Virus record (IMG/VR): IMGVR_UViG_3300028832_000095
Span: 1 to 64,000 of that record
DNA: 64,000 nucleotides
Strand: one strand, 5' to 3'
DNA from: a virus
Taxonomy: Duplodnaviria; Caudoviricetes
Positions 6,200 through 17,083 of this stretch are shown one piece after another (within the stretch, counting starts at the first letter, position 1; the number at the start of each line of letters is the position of its first letter). The notes beneath the pieces are model-generated. The model did no database searches. It was not told the origin of the DNA and saw only the letters and a list, made by a program, of their open reading frames with translations. Both the position numbers and the translations under genes were made by a program.

Positions 6200-6317
6200 T
6201 AAGTATATAAATAAAATAGTAAAGTAAAACTTTTACATCCATTTAAGTTATAAATTTTATAAGTCCTCTAACTATATCTGTATACGGAAATATGCAGATA
6301 TAAGTTGGAGGGCTTTT

Positions 6318-8750
6318 TTGCGTATGTTTACACTTGATGATATTATACATATCAGTAATGAAGAATTTTCAGCACTGTCTAAAGAGAATAAAGAGCTTAT
6401 TTTAACTATTCTACGGGAGTATCAGGAAACAGGAAATTCAAAAACTCTTTTAGATATATGGAATGAAGATTATGAAGAAATACCTGTTCCAATAGATGAG
6501 TTTATTTGTAATCCAAATTATCTAGGTAAAGCTACTGGAAATGGAGAACAGATATACCCATATTGGAGAAAAACATATAGAAAAATATTCGATCCAGCCC
6601 TTGCATATGAAGAAATAATCTTCACAGGGGCTATCGGTGTTGGAAAGACAAAAACCGCTGATGTTTGTTTAGCATATAAACTGTATGAACTAATGTGTCT
6701 TAAAAATCCTCAAAAGTATTTCAAGATGTTAGAAGGAGAAGAAATAGCAATATTCTTCTTAAACATTACATTACCTCTTGCAGAAGGTGTTGGATATAAA
6801 ACTCTACACAAAATGCTTTTAGATAGCCCTTGGTTCATGGAAAGAGGATTTGAAAGTGGTAGGGTTAAGCGTTTATATAATCCTCCAAAAAAGATAACTA
6901 TTAAATTTGGTTCTAAATCAGATCATGCTTTAGGTCAGCAATGCTACTGCGCACTTCTTGATGAGGTTGACTTCACAAGGGGCGGAATCAAAGGAGCTAG
7001 TGCATTAGACATAAAGAATGGAATCATGCAAACATATACCGCTATCAAAGAACGTATGAATTCACGTTTTATTAAAAACGGTAGACAGTATGCTAGATTA
7101 TTCCTTGTTTCTTCAAAAAAATCAGATCAAGACTTCATCGAAGCATATATAAAGAAAATGAAATCTGAAAGCCAAGATAAACATATGCTTATTATTGATG
7201 AACCACAATGGGTTATCAAACCGGATAGCACATTCACAGGGAAGAAATTTCCGGTTGCGGTTGGAAACAAATCATTGAAATCTATGATTCTTAGTGAAGA
7301 TATGACAGCAGAACAAGAAGAAGCATATAAAAAACAGGGTTATAGAATTTTAATGGTTCCGGTTGAATTAAAGCAAAGTTTTGTGCTTGATGTAAATACC
7401 GCCCTTATGAACCTAGCCGGAATATCTGTTATTGGAGCAGTTACATTCTTCAATTACGATATGTTCTCTAAATGCTATATAAAAGACTACGAGAATCCAT
7501 TTGTAAATGATGTTATTACAATAGGTATGAATGATGACTTGCAAATAGAGAACTTCTTTCAAATAGATAAAATACCTATGGCAGTTAGAATGATGCCACA
7601 GTTTATCCATATAGATGCTTCCTTAACAGGAGATAAAACAGGTATTTCTGATGTAGGAGCTTCGGGAGTAAAAGAACTTCAAACATATAATGGGGCAGAT
7701 GAATCTGTTGTTACAGAAATGACATATAAACATATCTTCACAGTTGCAATTCAAGCTCCGAAGGGTTCTGAGATATCCTTTGAAAAGACAAGACGATTCA
7801 TATATTATCTGAAAGCAAATGGATTCAATATCGTTGGTGTTTCACTTGACGGATATCAATCTGCTGATACAAAACAGTTACTCATTCAGCAAGGGTACGA
7901 TGCTAGTATACTATCTATGGATAGATCACCAGAAGGATATTTAACTTTACGTTCTGCTATGAATGACGGTAGAATAGGTCTAATTCAAATAGATTTATTG
8001 GAAAAAGAATTGATTGAATTACAAAGAGATGTTTCATCCGGAAAGTTAGACCACCCTACCGATGGATGTTTCACAGCAGATACAGAGATTCATCTTGCCG
8101 ATGGAAGATCAGTTCCAATAATACAACTACTGGAAGAACAAGAAAAATATGGTATCGTAAACTATGTATATACTGTAAACGAAAAAGAAAACATAATTGA
8201 AAAAAAGCCAATCAAAAAAGTTTTCAAAACAAAATTCGTTACAGAACTAATGGAAATAACATTAAATAATGATAAGATAATACATTGCACATTAGAACAT
8301 CCATTTATGTTATTAGACGGTTCTTATATTCAGGCACAGGAACTTAGAGAATGTTATCTACTAAGACCGTTATTCTTTGAACTGCTTGCAGTAAAATCAA
8401 TAAAGAAAATTCAGAGATCCTGTTATGTGTACGACATGGAAATATATGATAATCATAATTTTGCATTATCTGCGGGTGTGTTTGTTCATAATTCTAAGGA
8501 CTGTTCTGACTCTTTGGCAGGAGCTTTATGGAATGCTACATTACACAAACAGTCGTTGCTTGATAGTTTACAACTATTATCAACAATGGCAGATGTAAAC
8601 TCCGATATAGACCCAAGAGCGGATTTCCTACAAGATTTAGAAGATTCTATATCATATAATAGGAGCGCAAAACAAAGGTCACAACAAGCATCAAATAAAT
8701 TAGATGACTTGTTAAATAGTTATGGTTCAAGTGATATTTTAGTTTGGTAA
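6318..8750 (+). CDS. terL: terminase large subunit with mini-intein
   Basis: Walker A GAIGVGKT, Walker B LLDEVD, nuclease motif HIDAS and DHP..G|SKDCSD once the intein is removed; directly upstream of portal. Confidence 0.9.
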   Translation: MRMFTLDDIIHISNEEFSALSKENKELILTILREYQETGNSKTLLDIWNEDYEEIPVPIDEFICNPNYLGKATGNGEQIYPYWRKTYRKIFDPALAYEEIIFTGAIGVGKTKTADVCLAYKLYELMCLKNPQKYFKMLEGEEIAIFFLNITLPLAEGVGYKTLHKMLLDSPWFMERGFESGRVKRLYNPPKKITIKFGSKSDHALGQQCYCALLDEVDFTRGGIKGASALDIKNGIMQTYTAIKERMNSRFIKNGRQYARLFLVSSKKSDQDFIEAYIKKMKSESQDKHMLIIDEPQWVIKPDSTFTGKKFPVAVGNKSLKSMILSEDMTAEQEEAYKKQGYRILMVPVELKQSFVLDVNTALMNLAGISVIGAVTFFNYDMFSKCYIKDYENPFVNDVITIGMNDDLQIENFFQIDKIPMAVRMMPQFIHIDASLTGDKTGISDVGASGVKELQTYNGADESVVTEMTYKHIFTVAIQAPKGSEISFEKTRRFIYYLKANGFNIVGVSLDGYQSADTKQLLIQQGYDASILSMDRSPEGYLTLRSAMNDGRIGLIQIDLLEKELIELQRDVSSGKLDHPTDGCFTADTEIHLADGRSVPIIQLLEEQEKYGIVNYVYTVNEKENIIEKKPIKKVFKTKFVTELMEITLNNDKIIHCTLEHPFMLLDGSYIQAQELRECYLLRPLFFELLAVKSIKKIQRSCYVYDMEIYDNHNFALSAGVFVHNSKDCSDSLAGALWNATLHKQSLLDSLQLLSTMADVNSDIDPRADFLQDLEDSISYNRSAKQRSQQASNKLDDLLNSYGSSDILVW
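8067..8492 (+). mobile_element. cis mini-intein (142 aa, no endonuclease) in terminase nuclease domain
   Basis: G|CFTADT start, block B CTLEHPF, end VYD...NHNFAL..GVFVHN|S. Confidence 0.92.
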
Positions 8751-11129: not shown

Positions 11130-12836
11130 ATGGGAAAGAAAGTCTTAATTGAGACTAGAATGAATTCATTAAAGCTGAATGAAAGTAAAGCCCCTAAAAA
11201 GGGTTGCCTTGGTAGACTTGAAGGTGTATGTGCAGATTTTAAGAATCCAACAAGAAATGGACGTTTATATCCAATAAATCTTTGGAAAAAGGTTTTTGAT
11301 GATTCTTTGTTTAAGGAATCACTTCAAAACAAAACTCTTTTCGGAGAATTGGATCACCCAGAGGATAGATTTGAACCACTAATCTCCGAAGCCTGTGTTG
11401 TTATGACTGATTACACGATTGATGAAGATAAAGGTTTAATTTATGGTGGTTTTGATATTCTGGATACACCAAAAGGAAGAATCCTTAAAAGCATTGTAGA
11501 CTATGGCAGTGTTGTAGGTGTATCAAGTAGAGGTCAGGGTGATATTATAGAATCTGCTGACGGCGAACGTGTAGATGAAGACTCTTATGAGTTTGCTTGT
11601 TTTGATGTTGTATCTACACCAGCAGTTGAAAAGGCACGACAAAATGTTATGGAATCCATTAAGAGGGTTAAAGATGTTAGCTTTAAGGAATCCATTAACA
11701 AACAGATTGAGGATGCAGAAACAGTTGCAGACCTTAATATTATTAGGTCGGTTGTCAGATCCTCAAACTTAAAAGAATCCGAAATGGATACTATTATAGA
11801 ATCCATTGAAGATAGATGTGAAACCTTACAAAAGGTAGACAAGACTATTGTTGCCAGTGAGGAAGATTCTACAAAAACTCTTAAAGAATCTGCTAAGACT
11901 ATTAGAGATAACAAAAAGCTGTATAGCTGTATTAGGAGTTTACGTTCTCAGGTAAATGCTTATAAACATAGGGAATCAAGATATGTTGACACTATTCAAG
12001 AGAATAAGCAACAGATTGATAACTTAAAGCAAAAACTTAGAGAGCAGAGAAAACGTGTTGCTGAATCTGTAAAGAAACAGGAACATCAAGATCGGGTTCT
12101 AACAGAAAGAATTAGATCAAATAATTCTAGTCTTAATGAATCCAAAAAGACAATTTCAGAACTTAGAAGAAGAAATTCTATGCTGTCAGAACAGTATAAC
12201 AATCTAACAAATACATCACAAATGTATAAAGACAAGTTAGATTCAAAGTCAAAGCAGTTAGATAGTTTGAATGAGGAAGTTTCAAAACTTAATGAAAAAC
12301 TTTCTAAGTCCTCACAAAGAGTGACATATCTTGAAGGTCTTTTAGATAAGTCACAGGTAGAACATTCAACAGAAATCAACTCACTTGACAAAGAAGTTTC
12401 TGATTATTCTTCTTTACTACAAGAAGCACAGCAACGCTTAGAATCTAAAACATCAACAATTAAAGAACTAAGTGAATCTGTAACAAAACTAAAAGAAGAA
12501 AATGAAAAGAATAAGTCTTTAACACAAGCACTTATGACTCAAGTTGGTAATTATCAAAAACAGCTTGTAGAGAATTTAGCAAACACACATGACGTTGATC
12601 CTTCAATAGTTATGAAAAGTGTTACACCAAAGACAACTCCACAAGGGGTTAAGAAATTGGTAGAGAGTGTAAGAGACAAGATGGATAGGTACAACCAACT
12701 TCCAATTTCTTCAAATAGCATAACAGATTCAGATAATGTTATTTTAGAGAAGTTTTCAAAATCTTCTATGTCAGATGATGAAAAGGAAGATTTAAGACTA
12801 AGCAATTTTATTGAAGCCGTTTCAAATTCTATGTAA
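11130..12836 (+). CDS. prohead protease (T4 gp21-like) fused to long coiled-coil scaffold
   Basis: NGRLY, GELDHP, GVSSRGQG, FDVVSTPA motifs; C-terminal ~380 aa coiled coil rich in xxES motifs. Confidence 0.88.
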   Translation: MGKKVLIETRMNSLKLNESKAPKKGCLGRLEGVCADFKNPTRNGRLYPINLWKKVFDDSLFKESLQNKTLFGELDHPEDRFEPLISEACVVMTDYTIDEDKGLIYGGFDILDTPKGRILKSIVDYGSVVGVSSRGQGDIIESADGERVDEDSYEFACFDVVSTPAVEKARQNVMESIKRVKDVSFKESINKQIEDAETVADLNIIRSVVRSSNLKESEMDTIIESIEDRCETLQKVDKTIVASEEDSTKTLKESAKTIRDNKKLYSCIRSLRSQVNAYKHRESRYVDTIQENKQQIDNLKQKLREQRKRVAESVKKQEHQDRVLTERIRSNNSSLNESKKTISELRRRNSMLSEQYNNLTNTSQMYKDKLDSKSKQLDSLNEEVSKLNEKLSKSSQRVTYLEGLLDKSQVEHSTEINSLDKEVSDYSSLLQEAQQRLESKTSTIKELSESVTKLKEENEKNKSLTQALMTQVGNYQKQLVENLANTHDVDPSIVMKSVTPKTTPQGVKKLVESVRDKMDRYNQLPISSNSITDSDNVILEKFSKSSMSDDEKEDLRLSNFIEAVSNSM

Positions 12837-12872: not shown

Positions 12873-13706
12873 ATGGCATCTATGATTAACGAAGCCCTGC
12901 TTGAAAATCAGGCAAAGGGTAAAAAACTAATCGAAAGATTCAGCAGAAATATTCGTATTGCTGAGTCCGTACAGAAGAAGAAGGGTAGCACCCTTACACT
13001 TGAGAAGAAGATGGCTCTTGCACAGGTTCTTTCAAACACTCAGCAGAGACTTGCTGAGGCTACTAATTCCTCTAACATTCCTAGCAAGACATTCTTTATG
13101 GATATGCTGACCGCAGTTGTTCCAAACCTTATCGCTCCTGATATCGTTTCTACTCAGGCTCTTGAGTCTAAGGCAGGTATGATTTCTTACCTCCGTTTCT
13201 CCTATGGTACTGATAAAGGAACTGTCAGTGCAGGTCAGATGTTTAACAACTCCCTTTACACCGGACAGTCCAACACCTATTATTCTTCCAGAACAATTGA
13301 TGAGGAGCCTGTTGCAACTGGTGTGAACTTTGAGTTTGTTCCAATTCTCCCAAAGACTATTGTTATTTCACTTCCAGATGGTACTCGTTATGTTGATGAC
13401 GGTACTGGTAATCTTGTTGATCCACTAACTGCAACTCAGGTTGGTACTATTGACTATGCAACTGGTGCTTTCACTTGTGCATCTGCTACTGATGGCACAA
13501 CTGCTACATATGAGTACAACAATGAGCAGGTTCCGGATCTTAACGTTCCAGAGATCAATATGTCTCTCGCACAGATTCCAGTTTATGCAAAGAGCAGAAA
13601 ACTTGCTGCTTACTGGGGCTTTGATGCAGCTTATGATCTTAAACAGCAGTATGGTACTGAGATTCTTGATGTTATGTCCACTCAGGCTGCTGGTGAGATT
13701 GCCCAT
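12873..13706 (+). CDS. major capsid protein (T4 gp23-like), exon 1
   Basis: VPNLIAPDIVSTQ, AKSRKLAAYW, DLKQQYG, GEIAH; joins exon 2 as GEIAH|EIDMEVI. Confidence 0.92.
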
Positions 13707-14726
13707 AAACAACTTGTGGCTTAATCTGGTGACAGATTATGAAAAACCATGTGAATTTCTGGAAAAGCATATAAGAAGTCATATCACTTATATGCCAATC
13801 AGAAGCCAAGATAATTATAATTGAGGTAGTTTATATGTATGGTTACATTTACATGACAACAAATAATATCAATGGCAGAAAATATATCGGTCAGAAAAAA
13901 TCTAATAAGTTTCTCAATGAAAAGTATTTAGGTTCTGGAAAGATACTGAAACAAGCTATTGAATTATATGGAAAAGAGAATTTTTCAGTTCAATTGTTAT
14001 GTGAATGCGAATCAAAAGAAGAGCTTGACAGAATGGAAGTTTATTATATTTCAAAGTACAATGCAAAAGATAGCAGAGAATTTTATAATATATGTAAAGG
14101 TGGAGAAGCCGGACCTGGTGGAGATAAGTTCAGAGGTCATAAGCATACAAATGAAACAAGAGAGCTTATGAGTAAAAACAGATCTGGTGAAAAGAATTCA
14201 AACTATGGAAACCATTGGAAATATAATGAAGTTCAATTAGAGAATAGACGAAAACTTATGTCAGGCTCAGGTAATCCGATGTATGGTAAAAAACAATCGG
14301 ATGAGACAAAGAAAAAGATAAGTGATAAACTTAAAGGAAGATTAAATGGAAAAACAAGAGTTACAAACGGAGAAATAAATAAATTCATTGATGTTTGCGA
14401 TCTTGCCTATTATGAATCTTTAGGATATCACAAAGGTATTTGTCGAAAGTCAAAATAAACTACAAAATTATAATTATAAGGTTCAGAGACTATCGAAAGC
14501 TAGACAATCGCATTTGTAGAAATACATAAACACATAAGCAGATGTGGGCGATTTGAAAATAAGGCTATTATAGCACGAAGCAAGTAGAGTAGGATTTAGT
14601 AAATCCGAAGTGCATGGGTTCTCATATATTTGGTAATAGAATATTTGAGAATGTGATATAGTCCGATCTATACAAAATACATAATGTATAGAGAACTATG
14701 GGAAACGCATAGTTCGTAACATAATG
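13707..14726 (+). ncRNA. group I intron 1 of capsid gene (carries GIY-YIG endonuclease gene)
   Basis: 5' exon ends in U pairing with IGS GUGG (13716-19); Q AATCAGAAGCCAAG, R GTTCAGAGACTA, S GATATAGTCC; ends in G14726; in-frame junction. Confidence 0.88.
13835..14458 (+). CDS. GIY-YIG homing endonuclease with NUMOD3-like repeats (intron-encoded)
   Basis: GYIY...KYIG, YLGSG, FYN; HKHTNETRELMS and KKQSDETKKKIS repeats. Confidence 0.9.
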   Translation: MYGYIYMTTNNINGRKYIGQKKSNKFLNEKYLGSGKILKQAIELYGKENFSVQLLCECESKEELDRMEVYYISKYNAKDSREFYNICKGGEAGPGGDKFRGHKHTNETRELMSKNRSGEKNSNYGNHWKYNEVQLENRRKLMSGSGNPMYGKKQSDETKKKISDKLKGRLNGKTRVTNGEINKFIDVCDLAYYESLGYHKGICRKSK

Positions 14727-15102
14727 GAGATTGATATGGAAGTTATCAGCAAACTCTATCAGGGTGCTGCTGCTGGTCCAGAACTTACTTGGTCTAAGAT
14801 TCCACCTCACGGTGTAAATGCACTTGACCACTATGATTCCTTCTTTGTAAGACTTACAGAGGGTGCAAACATTATCTTTGGTGCAACCCAGAGAGTTCAG
14901 CCGAACTTCATTGTTTGTGGTATCAATGTTGCTGCTGTTATTGAAGTTATGAGAAACTTTGATGGTACTGGTGCATCTGATGCAGTTGGTCCTCACTTCA
15001 TTGGTACTCTTGGTGGTAAGTACAAAGTTTATGTTGCTCCTAACATGGGTGAGGATACCTTTGTTATGGGTTATAAGGGTACAAACTTCCTCGAAGCTGG
15101 AT
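14727..15102 (+). CDS. major capsid protein, exon 2
   Basis: EIDMEVI...NFIVCG...GTLGGKYKVYV...GYKG: gp23 family. Confidence 0.9.
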
Positions 15103-15502
15103 TAACGGATTATGCCGTTGCTGCGTAATACAAGTCCAGGGTAAACCTCGTGAACTGCTGGAAAGCTCGTAAGTGAGTCAATCAGCAGCCAAGCACTATT
15201 GAATAAATAGTGAAGGTTCAACGACTATCGAAAGCTAAACAACCACATTTACAGAAATGTATAAATAGTTGTTACTAGGTGGTTTGAAAATAAGGTTATA
15301 AATATAACACGAAGCAAGTAGAGTACAGCCTTTATTAAAAAGGTTAGCCGTAAAATGATATTAGTTTTACATAAGTCTGTTAAATGGAAGTGCGAGGGTT
15401 TCTATTAGCTTGGTAACAGAGTTGATAGATTCATGATATAGTCTGATCCCCATAGTGATATGGGAAATATACACTATATTACAAAGTGTATAAACATAAA
15501 TG
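15103..15502 (+). ncRNA. group I intron 2 of capsid gene (ORF-less, 400 nt)
   Basis: IGS AUACAA-GUCCAG pairs with CUGGAU|UUGUAU (U.G at splice site); P/Q/R/S core TGCTGGAAA, AATCAGCAGCC, GTTCAACGACTA, GATATAGTCT; ends in G15502; junction gives EAGFVYAPY. Confidence 0.92.
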
Positions 15503-15645
15503 TTGTATACGCACCGTATATTCCTGTTTGCACAACAGACCTTCTTATGCCAGCAGATTTCCGTGGTCAGCAAGGTTATGCTACCAGTTATGGTATGAAA
15601 ATGATTAACGGAAAAATGTATCTTAGAGGCAGAATAACAGGTTGA
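15503..15645 (+). CDS. major capsid protein, exon 3 plus C-terminal copy A (used if intron 3 is not spliced)
   Basis: FVYAPY-IPVCTTDLLMPADFRGQQGYATSYGMKMINGKMYLRGRITG*; total protein 450 aa. Confidence 0.85.
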
Positions 15646-16957
15646 TAGCAAACAATAAGGTATGTACCTTCATATAGTGATATATGATTGTAGTAACAAA
15701 GGTGAATTCAGGGAACATCCTTAGAGCTTAAACTACCAAGCATATACAGTAATGTGTATGTGGATGAAGTAATTACTCATGTACGGTAACAAGGTTTAAG
15801 ATTGGATAACCACTGAGCCAAGCATCCAATTTGTTTTTGGATGAAGGTGCAACGACTATGGGGTGGTGCCCAGTAGGTTCAAATGAACCGAAGTTCCTTT
15901 GGGCTTTGTTTGTAAAGAACAAAGTTTATGATATAGTCTAGCCTTAGTTGATACGAAATTCAACAACCTATTAAATAGGTTTCCGAAAGGATGAGCATCT
16001 TAAAAATGACTGAGAGGTTTATATGATAAAATGCTGTGTATGTGGGCAAACGGTGACATCTAAACGTGGTTTAGCGTTTCATGTGAAGAAACATGATATA
16101 CAGTCTGTTGATGATTATATTAAAATGTTTCCAGATGAAGAACAAACACTGAATCCAAGCATAGATGGACTACTTAGCTGCCCGATTTGCGGAAAGAAAA
16201 ACTTGAAACAACTCACACAACATTTGACATGGATTCACGGATTATCACGATCTGAATTTGAAACTAATTACCCAGAGCAGATATTGTTTATTCCAGAAAT
16301 AAGCGATAGATGTAAAAAAGCGACTGCAATAGGTCACGAAAAATATCTTGAAAATGTAAAAAACAATCCTGAACGATATAAGAAAACCTACCTTGAACGC
16401 GCTGCAAAGATTCGTGAACGATATCCGAACTTAGGAAATCGTATATCGAATAAACTAAGAGAGAATGGAACGTATGCCAGACTTTCCGACATAACGAGAA
16501 AAAAATGGAACGACGAATCTTATCGCAGAATGCAATCAGAAAAGTGCAAAAATCAACATAAGAACGGTTTAACTGAAATAGTTGTTAAGAAATCTTGTAA
16601 TAAAAATTACGTTAAATTTGCTACATTTAATGGAAAGACATATAGATTCCGATCCTCATACGAGTTGAAGTTCGCTGAAATATTGAATAATCTTGGCATT
16701 TCATTCATGTACGAGGAGTTAAAAATAAATTATTTTTATAATGGATTGTTTCATACATACTACCCTGATTTTGCAATACCAAACACGAATATTGTGTTTG
16801 AGGTAAAGCCATATTTTAGAATTCAAACAAAAATGAATCAGGCAAAACAAAGATACTGCGTAGAAAATGGGTATAGTTTTAGATACATAACAGAGTACGA
16901 ACTAAATAATCCAGAATCAATAAATCTCAAAGGATGTTTTTAAGCGTAATAAAAGCA
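15520..16957 (+). ncRNA. group I intron 3 of capsid gene; 5' part holds a duplicate terminal exon, P9 region holds an endonuclease gene
   Basis: Core at ~15700-15940 (GAATTCAGGGAA, CTGAGCCAAGC, GTGCAACGACTA, GATATAGTCT); IGS AGGUAU-GUAC 15658-67 pairs with GUAU|AUGCCU; boundaries inferred. Confidence 0.75.
16023..16943 (+). CDS. intron-encoded putative homing endonuclease: C2H2 zinc fingers plus PD-(D/E)XK nuclease
   Basis: CCVC..HVKKH, CPIC..HLTWIH; RSSYE...YYPDF...FEVK. Confidence 0.8.
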   Translation: MIKCCVCGQTVTSKRGLAFHVKKHDIQSVDDYIKMFPDEEQTLNPSIDGLLSCPICGKKNLKQLTQHLTWIHGLSRSEFETNYPEQILFIPEISDRCKKATAIGHEKYLENVKNNPERYKKTYLERAAKIRERYPNLGNRISNKLRENGTYARLSDITRKKWNDESYRRMQSEKCKNQHKNGLTEIVVKKSCNKNYVKFATFNGKTYRFRSSYELKFAEILNNLGISFMYEELKINYFYNGLFHTYYPDFAIPNTNIVFEVKPYFRIQTKMNQAKQRYCVENGYSFRYITEYELNNPESINLKGCF

Positions 16958-17083
16958 ATGCCTATACTTTCCACCGACCTCTTAATGCCTGCTGACTTCC
17001 GTGGACAGCAAGCTTATGCAACATCTTACGGTATGAAGATGATCAATGGTAAGATGTATCTCCGTGGTAGAATTACTGGTTAA
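16958..17083 (+). CDS. major capsid protein, terminal exon copy B
   Basis: MPILSTDLLMPADFRGQQAYATSYGMKMINGKMYLRGRITG*; 36/41 identical to copy A; absent from the ORF track. Confidence 0.82.
   Translation: MPILSTDLLMPADFRGQQAYATSYGMKMINGKMYLRGRITG

Follow-up and report, generated by a model that had tools for sequence, protein, structure and literature searches.

A predicted mosaic capsid gene in an uncultured phage: four exons, three group I introns and a recoded copy of the last exon within an intron

The sole Gp23-family capsid gene of a 201,895-bp viral record (IMG/VR IMGVR_UViG_3300028832_000095, from an uncultured phage of roughly 200 kb; CheckV completeness, 84%) is located at positions 12873-17083 of the window analyzed here, that is, the first 64,000 nucleotides (nt) of the record. 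This single gp23-type gene is likely to be a mosaic in which four exons alternate with three mobile group I introns, the third of which carries a recoded copy of the last exon (hereinafter copy A, the last exon itself being denoted copy B). In silico analysis delineates the exon structure of the gene, the folds of the predicted ribozymes and their P1 and P10 pairings with the exons. Three group I introns in this gene had been proposed in an earlier note on the same DNA, and this proposal is now backed by matches to a covariance model, by covariation and by the precise presence or absence of the introns in related phages.

The capsid gene and its exons

Joined in frame, the four exons (Table 1) encode a Gp23-family protein of 450 amino acids (aa), and every coordinate of the join put forward in the earlier note holds: the joined product aligns to P0004, an uninterrupted 450-aa homolog, end to end with 0 gaps and 86-87% identity (P0004 itself was later shown to be followed by an endonuclease gene and copy B, see below). 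The exon junctions had been expected to read GEIAH-EID and EAG-FVYAPY, and the intact homologs read exactly so. The Pfam profile PF07068 (Gp23) runs continuously over the breaks, from exons 1 and 2 (Table 1) to exon 3 (profile positions 318-349, 17.6 bits), such that positions 8-349 of the 376 in the profile are covered by the pieces of the split gene. Membership in the Gp23 family is indicated by scores above the curated cut-off, by coverage of the whole fold and by a neighborhood of head genes, in which the genes for the portal, the protease-scaffold and the major capsid protein (MCP) follow each other in the canonical order and the gene for the Peptidase_S77 prohead protease adjoins the capsid gene on its 5' side. 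Among cultured phages, only distant relatives of this capsid protein (39% identity or less) were detected, among them proteins annotated as major capsid in phages of Listeria, Bacillus and Streptococcus (36-39% identity), and a megablast search of GenBank phages with the locus returned no match.

Introns 1 and 2

Comparison with the Rfam group I intron model (RF00028; gathering score, 50 bits) and with related loci supports the classification of introns 1 and 2 as conventional group I introns. When this covariance-model check was run, introns 2 and 3 scored above the gathering score, with a full-length match for intron 2 (15093-15465, 59.6 bits). Intron 1 of the window matches the model only with its 5' half (22.9 bits, E 0.0023) because the endonuclease gene splits the ribozyme. 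A homolog of intron 1 that lacks the homing endonuclease gene (L025:871-1220; related loci are denoted here by L numbers) yields a full-model match with 48.0 bits, 2 bits under the cut-off, and the 3' half of intron 1 in the window aligns with this homolog and with intron 2. The P1 helix of intron 1 covaries (CCAU/GUGG vs CUAU/GUAG in L006), and its P2 hairpin, with a GUGA loop, has likewise undergone compensatory changes; P10 is weak, with about 3 bp. The nearest relative that we found, L040 (flanks 94% identical), is without exactly the nucleotides 13707-14726, and the intron is also missing from L003 and present in L002.

For intron 2, the pairing of the guide sequence with both exons is as claimed previously. 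In P1, CUGGAU (15097-15102) pairs with GUCCAG (15134-15139), with the wobble U15102.G15134 at the splice site, and in P10 (6 bp), UUGUAU (15503-15508) pairs with AUACAA (15128-15133). The P10 helix covaries with the 3' exon (UUGUAU/AUACAA vs UAUUU/AAAUA in L006 and L007), and compensatory changes were detected in 29 of the 87 predicted pairs of this intron (seven loci).

Translation of unspliced RNA stops within each of these introns, namely after 5 codons (KQLVA) in intron 1 and after 8 codons (LTDYAVAA) in intron 2, and their removal therefore appears to be obligatory; we infer that both are actually spliced and that ribozyme self-splicing would take them out to allow synthesis of the capsid protein. 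The earlier claim that at least two splicing events are required is thereby confirmed for introns 1 and 2, which truncate the frame at 283 and 412 aa, respectively; intron 3 is optional for an intact frame.

Several additional observations pertain to these introns. The read-through peptides KQLVA and LT..A.AA (13707-13724 and 15103-15128) are conserved in dozens of database proteins because their codons double as the P1/guide-sequence region, and they are handy markers of truncated capsid calls; the database matches included no protein of this phage in its spliced form. In L006 (L006:8277-9429), intron 2 holds a gene for a GIY-YIG endonuclease that is kin to the one encoded in intron 1, which is consistent with cycles of endonuclease gain and loss. 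A similar motif, CGUAAC-A-nAAnnG, directly precedes the 3' splice site in all three introns (14700-14726, 15480-15502 and 16930-16957) and is degenerate in introns 2 and 3 of the window. This common motif suggests that the three introns descend from one ancestor and share an element at the 3' end, either P9.0-type or a tertiary contact.

The intron 3 ribozyme and its predicted 5' splice site

We gathered 13 loci with intron 3 from viral, metagenome and run-assembly collections. In all 13, the 5' exon ends with (G/C)UAU and is followed by an intact, 126-nt copy A, a linker of 6-14 nt, the sequence GUA(C/G), a GNRA-capped P2 and a well-conserved core, in which 54 of the 97 pairs show compensatory changes (9 loci). 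The guide sequence for U15519 is located 140 nt downstream, with copy A filling the P1 loop in between. The predicted P1 joins GUAU-AU (15516-15521, the hyphen denoting the splice site) and AUGUAC (15662-15667), with the wobble U15519.G15664 at the splice site. Across 12 distinct sequences, 100% of the cells of this P1 are paired, every sequence retains the U.G and compensatory changes affect 2 of 5 pairs, with a switch from G-C to C-G at position -4 and among A-U, C-G and U.G at position +1; in control alignments with a slid P1, the paired fraction falls to 3-74%.

The copy A insert is closed by a stem of its own, formed by codons 2-5 of copy A and the linker downstream of the copy A stop (Table 1). 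An equivalent stem, with a different sequence, is predicted in 12 of the 12 loci tested, and the closing-stem duplex has an energy of -10.3 kcal/mol for cognate vs -7.9 kcal/mol for non-cognate combinations (permutation p 1e-4; for the stem alone, p 1.6e-4). L040 (94% identical) displays a compensatory change, from C-G to U-A, in this stem. Covariation of both P1 and the closing stem therefore suggests that the RNA has been selected to extrude copy A as a closed domain within the P1 loop and to present U15519, paired with its distant guide, to the ribozyme.

Taken with the pairings of intron 2, these features support the predicted 15519/15520 boundary and the 17-nt micro-exon. The exon is bounded on both sides by splice-site pairings, with the terminal G and P10 of intron 2 at one edge and the covarying P1 with its invariant U.G of intron 3 at the other. 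An exon of the identical length, 17 nt, is found in all six loci that contain introns 2 and 3 (the window, L001, L002, L016, L025 and L040).

Alternative splice pairs for intron 3 were tried as well, namely U15522/G16960, U15642 or U15643 with G16960, and a G at position -3. All were rejected because the helix lacks a U.G, or because the product would be frameshifted, carry two C-termini in tandem or lose one codon, or, in the case of the -3 G, because the nucleotide is not conserved.

Two copies of the last exon

The frame of exon 3 need not stop at 15519: copy A continues the frame from the micro-exon, which is open through 15520-15645 to a TGA, and ends with ...RGRITG-TGA, a complete capsid C-terminus, so that RNA with unspliced intron 3 also encodes the full 450-aa protein. 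In the window, copies A and B are identical in 88% of the amino acids and 73% of the nucleotides. They differ in 5 of the 41 residues, with 4 of the differences located within the first five codons, and amino-acid divergence between the copies is generally concentrated in the first six codons. The two products can be told apart by isoform-specific peptides, APYIPVCTT and GQQGYATSYGMK for copy A, and APYMPILST and GQQAYATSYGMK for copy B. The junction reads GCACCGTAT-ATGCCTAT in the intron-free allele and GCACCGTAT-ATTCCTGT at copy A.

Both copies are intact in 13 of 13 loci and, judging from comparisons with intron-3-free relatives, copy B is the native exon. It shares 98% of the nucleotides with the C-terminus of intron-3-free sisters (pairs L002/L003 and L008/L010), vs 73-79% for copy A, and is nearer than copy A to every single-copy C-terminus of the intron-3-free relatives. 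The intron-3-free alleles encode Y-M-P-(I/V) in 9 of 9 cases, by TA(T/C)-ATGCC (the hyphen marks the insertion site), whereas residue 410 in copy A was I, Q or F in 12 of the 12 first loci, is I in L040, and is never M. The residue 410 rule predicted an endonuclease gene and copy B after the genes for P0004, P0023 and P0052 (447- and 450-aa proteins with I at 410), and these were found in 3 of 3 cases.

Both copies appear to evolve under purifying selection, with a ratio of nonsynonymous to synonymous substitution rates (dN/dS) of about 0.1-0.2 between genomes. In codons 7-41, the amino-acid identity of copies A and B is 0.94 within a genome vs 0.83 between genomes (permutation p < 5e-5), and the best match for 10 of 12 copy A sequences is copy B from the same genome. 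The identity of synonymous codons hardly differs within and between genomes (0.46 vs 0.43), with dS between the copies saturated. Thus, both copies seem to track the same lineage-specific protein while their DNA stays different, a pattern that fits translation of both; homing among close relatives with co-conversion could contribute to the protein similarity. The GC content in third codon positions (GC3) is lower in copy A than in copy B in 12 of 12 loci (L040 not included), and for lysine, copy A favors AAA, like the mobile element, whereas the capsid exons and copy B use AAG. With respect to codon adaptation as a sign of the highly expressed copy, a weak line of evidence, the difference in codon adaptation index between the copies is marginal (Wilcoxon p 0.064), and clear differences are limited to GC3 and the lysine codons.

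Table 1. Predicted features of the split capsid gene (coordinates in the window)
Feature	Coordinates	Strand	Evidence and remarks
MCP exon 1, codons 1-278	12873..13706	+	Gp23 67.9 bits, profile 8-183; ends GEIAH, contiguous with EID in intact homologs
Intron 1, group I	13707..14726	+	P1 CCAU (splice site) ..GUGG (13703-13719), U13706.G13716; terminal G14726
Intron 1 homing endonuclease, GIY-YIG + NUMOD3, between P6 and P7	13835..14458	+	NUMOD3 54.8, SegE_GIY-YIG 27.1, GIY-YIG 23.2 bits
MCP exon 2, codons 279-404 and first base of codon 405	14727..15102	+	Gp23 77.9 bits, profile 185-316
Intron 2, group I, no open reading frame	15103..15502	+	Guide AUACAA-GUCCAG 15128-15139; terminal G15502; RF00028 59.6 bits
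17-nt micro-exon (exon 3), rest of codon 405 to codon 409, F-VYAPY	15503..15519	+	Bounded by intron 2 3' splice site and intron 3 P1
Intron 3, group I, with homing endonuclease gene	15520..16957	+	P1, core covariation, P10; last base A16957
Copy A, in-frame recoded duplicate of last 41 codons + TGA	15520..15645	+	In P1 loop of intron 3
Closing stem of copy A insert, UGUUUGC 15525-15531 with GCAAACA 15648-15654	15525..15654	+	Minimum free energy fold
Intron 3 ribozyme core, P2 15671-15686 (GUGA loop), then P3-P9 with P7.1/P7.2-like hairpins	15634..15959	+	RF00028 52.2 bits; RNAalifold consensus
Intron 3 homing endonuclease candidate, C2H2 zinc fingers + T7 endonuclease I-like PD-(D/E)XK	16023..16943	+	Pfam, PDB
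MCP exon 4 = copy B, codons 410-450 + TAA	16958..17083	+	Native 3' end; starts ATGCC

Encoded endonucleases and mobility

The open reading frame (ORF) in intron 1 belongs to PHROG 314 ('homing endonuclease', E 1.6e-42). For the ORF in intron 3, the Pfam search identified Phage_endo_I (38 bits; cut-off, 29.1), a TnsA-like N-terminal domain and zf-C2H2, and comparison with PDB revealed similarity to T7 endonuclease I (E 3e-6). Such a combination of N-terminal C2H2 fingers with a T7 endonuclease I/TnsA-like domain is uncommon for an intron-encoded homing endonuclease, and the respective family, PHROG 22215, is annotated as 'unknown function'.

Homologs of the intron 3 endonuclease are encoded in the same position in L001, L002, L008, L014, L030 and L037-L040; in L016, L025 and L027, the endonuclease gene is lost or a remnant, and the ribozyme and both exon copies persist. 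Intron 3 as a whole is missing from L003 and L010 and present in their sisters L002 and L008. Precise presence or absence at the insertion site among close relatives, combined with encoded nucleases (GIY-YIG and Phage_endo_I) of predicted site specificity, characterizes these elements as mobile introns.

Fate of intron 3 and alternative explanations

RNA that retains intron 3 encodes a full-length capsid protein ending in copy A, and RNA from which intron 3 is removed would encode the same protein with the native copy B. Copy A probably frees the phage from its dependence on efficient splicing of the most abundant late mRNA, and its divergence next to the junction may stem from the need to avoid rebuilding the site recognized by the PD-(D/E)XK endonuclease of the intron itself. 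A bolder reading, to which we give slightly less than even odds, is that splicing of intron 3 is optional: functional capsid would come from both kinds of mRNA, the two isoforms would co-assemble in the virion, the selfish element would be freed from the need to splice efficiently, and the clade in which the intron ends in A would represent ligation in the process of being given up.

Several points weigh against the overall interpretation of the gene as a mosaic with three introns. The last base of intron 3 is A in the window (A16957), L001, L037, L038 and L040. Group I chemistry requires a terminal G for exon ligation, and because the terminal base here is A, ligation is doubtful for the third intron in this phage; its second step of splicing may be weak, inefficient or lost, with isoform A predominant. 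Furthermore, P1 of intron 3 has just 4 exon-side base pairs, and the copy A stop is located 12 nt before the guide sequence (with its P10 segment from 15658), so that terminating ribosomes could occlude the guide. Copy B of the window differs from that of L040 mainly close to the junction, in a co-conversion-like manner, and the signal of purifying selection on copy B could therefore stem from the other genomes. Finally, given the estimated completeness of the record, a second capsid gene is possible in principle.

With regard to the 3' end, G directly precedes the ATGCC of copy B in 8 of the 13 loci, and the P7 helix that binds G is the same in the terminal-A and terminal-G clades. The P10 of intron 3 consists of 6 bp in the window (AGGUAU 15658-15663 with AUGCCU 16958-16963) and is longer in L001 (8 bp) and L038 (7 bp), between which it covaries from A-U to G-C; it is weak (about 3 bp) in the clade with Q or F at residue 410, as opposed to 6-8 bp in the clade that includes the window. 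Because P10 is kept up in the terminal-A clade, alignment of the 3' exon appears to be still maintained there. In structural terms intron 3 is a real group I intron that is optional for an intact frame, possibly with impaired ligation in this phage.

An unlikely, albeit far from negligible, alternative is that intron 3 is no longer an intron in this phage but rather a 3'-end replacement cassette that reached codon 409/410 by homing and consists of a recoded C-terminus, a ribozyme and an endonuclease gene. In this case, 15645 would be the end of the capsid gene, and copy B would be a displaced, untranslated remnant that is intact because homing places the cassette by fresh native exons. The terminal A in the window and four relatives fits such a cassette, but the core, P1, the closing stem and P10 keep covarying, the terminal-A clade included, and a ribozyme that performs the first step alone would cleave the mRNA for the capsid protein. 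Gene callers report proteins of 447 and 450 aa as complete with copy A as their end, and the differences between copy B of the window and that of L040 cluster like a co-conversion tract; yet copy B is intact throughout the 13 loci. The low GC3 of copy A in 12 of 12 loci and its use of AAA for lysine are also suggestive of a mobile cassette, whereas the ribozyme and both copies outlast the loss of the endonuclease (L016, L025 and L027). A published analogy is found in Tremella mitochondria, where several such 'introns' proved unspliced (PMC7315562).

We consider it highly improbable that the third ribozyme is an intron of the 3' untranslated region, with the 5' splice site in the copy A stop codon (after U15643). 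The Rfam alignment begins at 15634 and draws P1 on CAGGUUGAU, but this helix lacks a U.G and consists of only about 4 pairs, the relatives conserve neither the region around the stop codon nor its spacing from the core, and no in-frame or sensible product is obtained with any nearby G as the 3' splice site. The P1 placed by Rfam on the stop codon was accordingly rejected, that helix not being conserved in the relatives; it is the upstream P1 that covaries instead. Least credible of all is a decaying pseudogene or an assembly chimera, with capsid protein made from a gene elsewhere, for instance in the region missing from the incomplete record: 13 independent contigs, each with the same exon-intron architecture, come from different samples, the exons remain in frame and conserved, the order of the head genes is canonical, and a search for another intact capsid gene copy, which the earlier note had named among the findings that would overturn its reading, returned a single Gp23 match in the entire record.

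If copy A indeed lessens the dependence on splicing, intron 3 is a mobile element able to neutralize its own cost through a spare exon, with constraints at the RNA and protein levels imposed within the same 126 nt. Given that both kinds of constraints on the spare exon are visible, the question of the cost of splicing becomes directly testable. More generally, a virion protein that is needed in hundreds of copies would hang on at least two ribozyme reactions per mRNA, and the capsid locus presents a demanding natural test case for splicing efficiency in translation-coupled late expression.

Spread among relatives and mis-annotation of capsid proteins

Contigs with the capsid gene in this uncultured phage family reach about 120-350 kb. 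In a set of the 120 closest clusters of capsid proteins, a length of about 283 aa and an end in the intron 1 read-through peptide characterize 47, a length of about 412 aa and the intron 2 read-through end characterize 25, and 43 are about 450 aa long, 15 of these with a residue other than M at 410; 5 more fall outside these length classes. The mark of one of these introns is thus borne by at least 87 of the 120 clusters (~72%). Most of the capsid genes in this family hence appear to be mis-called, with the errors inherited by capsid-based classification and structure prediction, and the 15 apparently 'complete' capsid calls end in an intron-borne copy.

A fourth group I site in the capsid gene was detected in L009 (L009:6215-6669), after codon 414, that is, five codons further on (AGT-taa...cgg-ACAGAC, the hyphens denoting splice sites). 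This intron matches the Rfam model with 53.3 bits (6245-6566); the reading frame meets a stop directly upon entering it, and it is devoid of an exon copy. By the predicted insertion sites, the last 50 codons of the capsid gene are an intron hot spot.

The ribozyme subfamily of intron 3, recognizable by an exact core motif of 23-26 nt, is represented also in other genes. It interrupts a DNA polymerase-like gene in L028 (4540-5890), together with a GIY-YIG ORF, and a very large ORF (1800 + 615 aa) in L019 (5430-6700), together with a LAGLIDADG-like ORF. Considering these two loci and the capsid locus, one ribozyme is therefore paired with three endonuclease families. An exon copy was sought in the L019 and L028 introns, and none was found there.

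Two neighboring genes deserve mention. The prohead protease ORF (11130-12836, 568 aa) encodes a Peptidase_S77 domain (residues 6-167) fused to a coiled-coil, scaffold-like tail of about 400 aa. Intein-splicing domains (PF14890) are encoded upstream of the portal gene in the nearest relative, by the gene at L040:1-378. These phages look, seemingly, unusually rich in self-splicing elements.

Comparison with known systems

The introns of the T4 genes td, nrdB and sunY (subgroup IA) appear to resemble those described here in that the core contains extra hairpins between P7 and P3, the ORFs are looped out, an early in-frame stop follows the 5' splice site (as in introns 1 and 2), and homing depends on the encoded endonuclease. 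Unlike the T4 introns, intron 3 has a P1 loop with a coding segment of 126 nt and encodes a T7 endonuclease I-like PD-(D/E)XK enzyme.

A single group I intron in the capsid gene has been reported for the mycobacteriophage LittleE and the lactococcal phage Tuc2009, and splicing of the LittleE capsid gene was demonstrated by reverse transcription PCR and N-terminal protein sequencing (PMC3706429). The likeness is that of a self-splicing intron with a homing endonuclease gene in the major capsid gene; in contrast to the one intron per gene in these phages, three are predicted here, along with a 17-nt exon and one intron that contains a duplicate of the exon behind it. Phage genes that harbor several group I introns from related subfamilies are also known, with three in orf142 of Twort and up to three in the DNA polymerase and terminase genes of Bastillevirinae (PMC11878797); these, however, are not capsid genes, and in a term search of that article for an intron-borne exon duplicate, 'duplicat' occurs 0 times. 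In the literature searched, we found no phage precedent for an exon-carrying intron, which is no proof of absence, and no published case of a ribozyme P1 that spans an exon-copy insert.

Another parallel comes from the mitochondria of the fungus Tremella fuciformis. The 5' end of introns in nad4, cox1, nad3, nad5 and cob carries an analogue of the following exon, with 72.5% and 81% similarity in the two quantified cases; the elements are present or absent among isolates, and cDNA tests gave mixed results, with splicing in some cases and none in others (PMC7315562). Introns in capsid genes, phage genes with three introns and, in fungal mitochondria, exon-copy introns have thus each been published already. 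The phage element shares with the Tremella ones an exon analogue at the 5' end of the intron and differs in that it is viral rather than organellar; in the section of the Tremella report considered here, neither a covarying P1 or closing stem across the insert nor co-evolution of the two copies at the protein level is analyzed.

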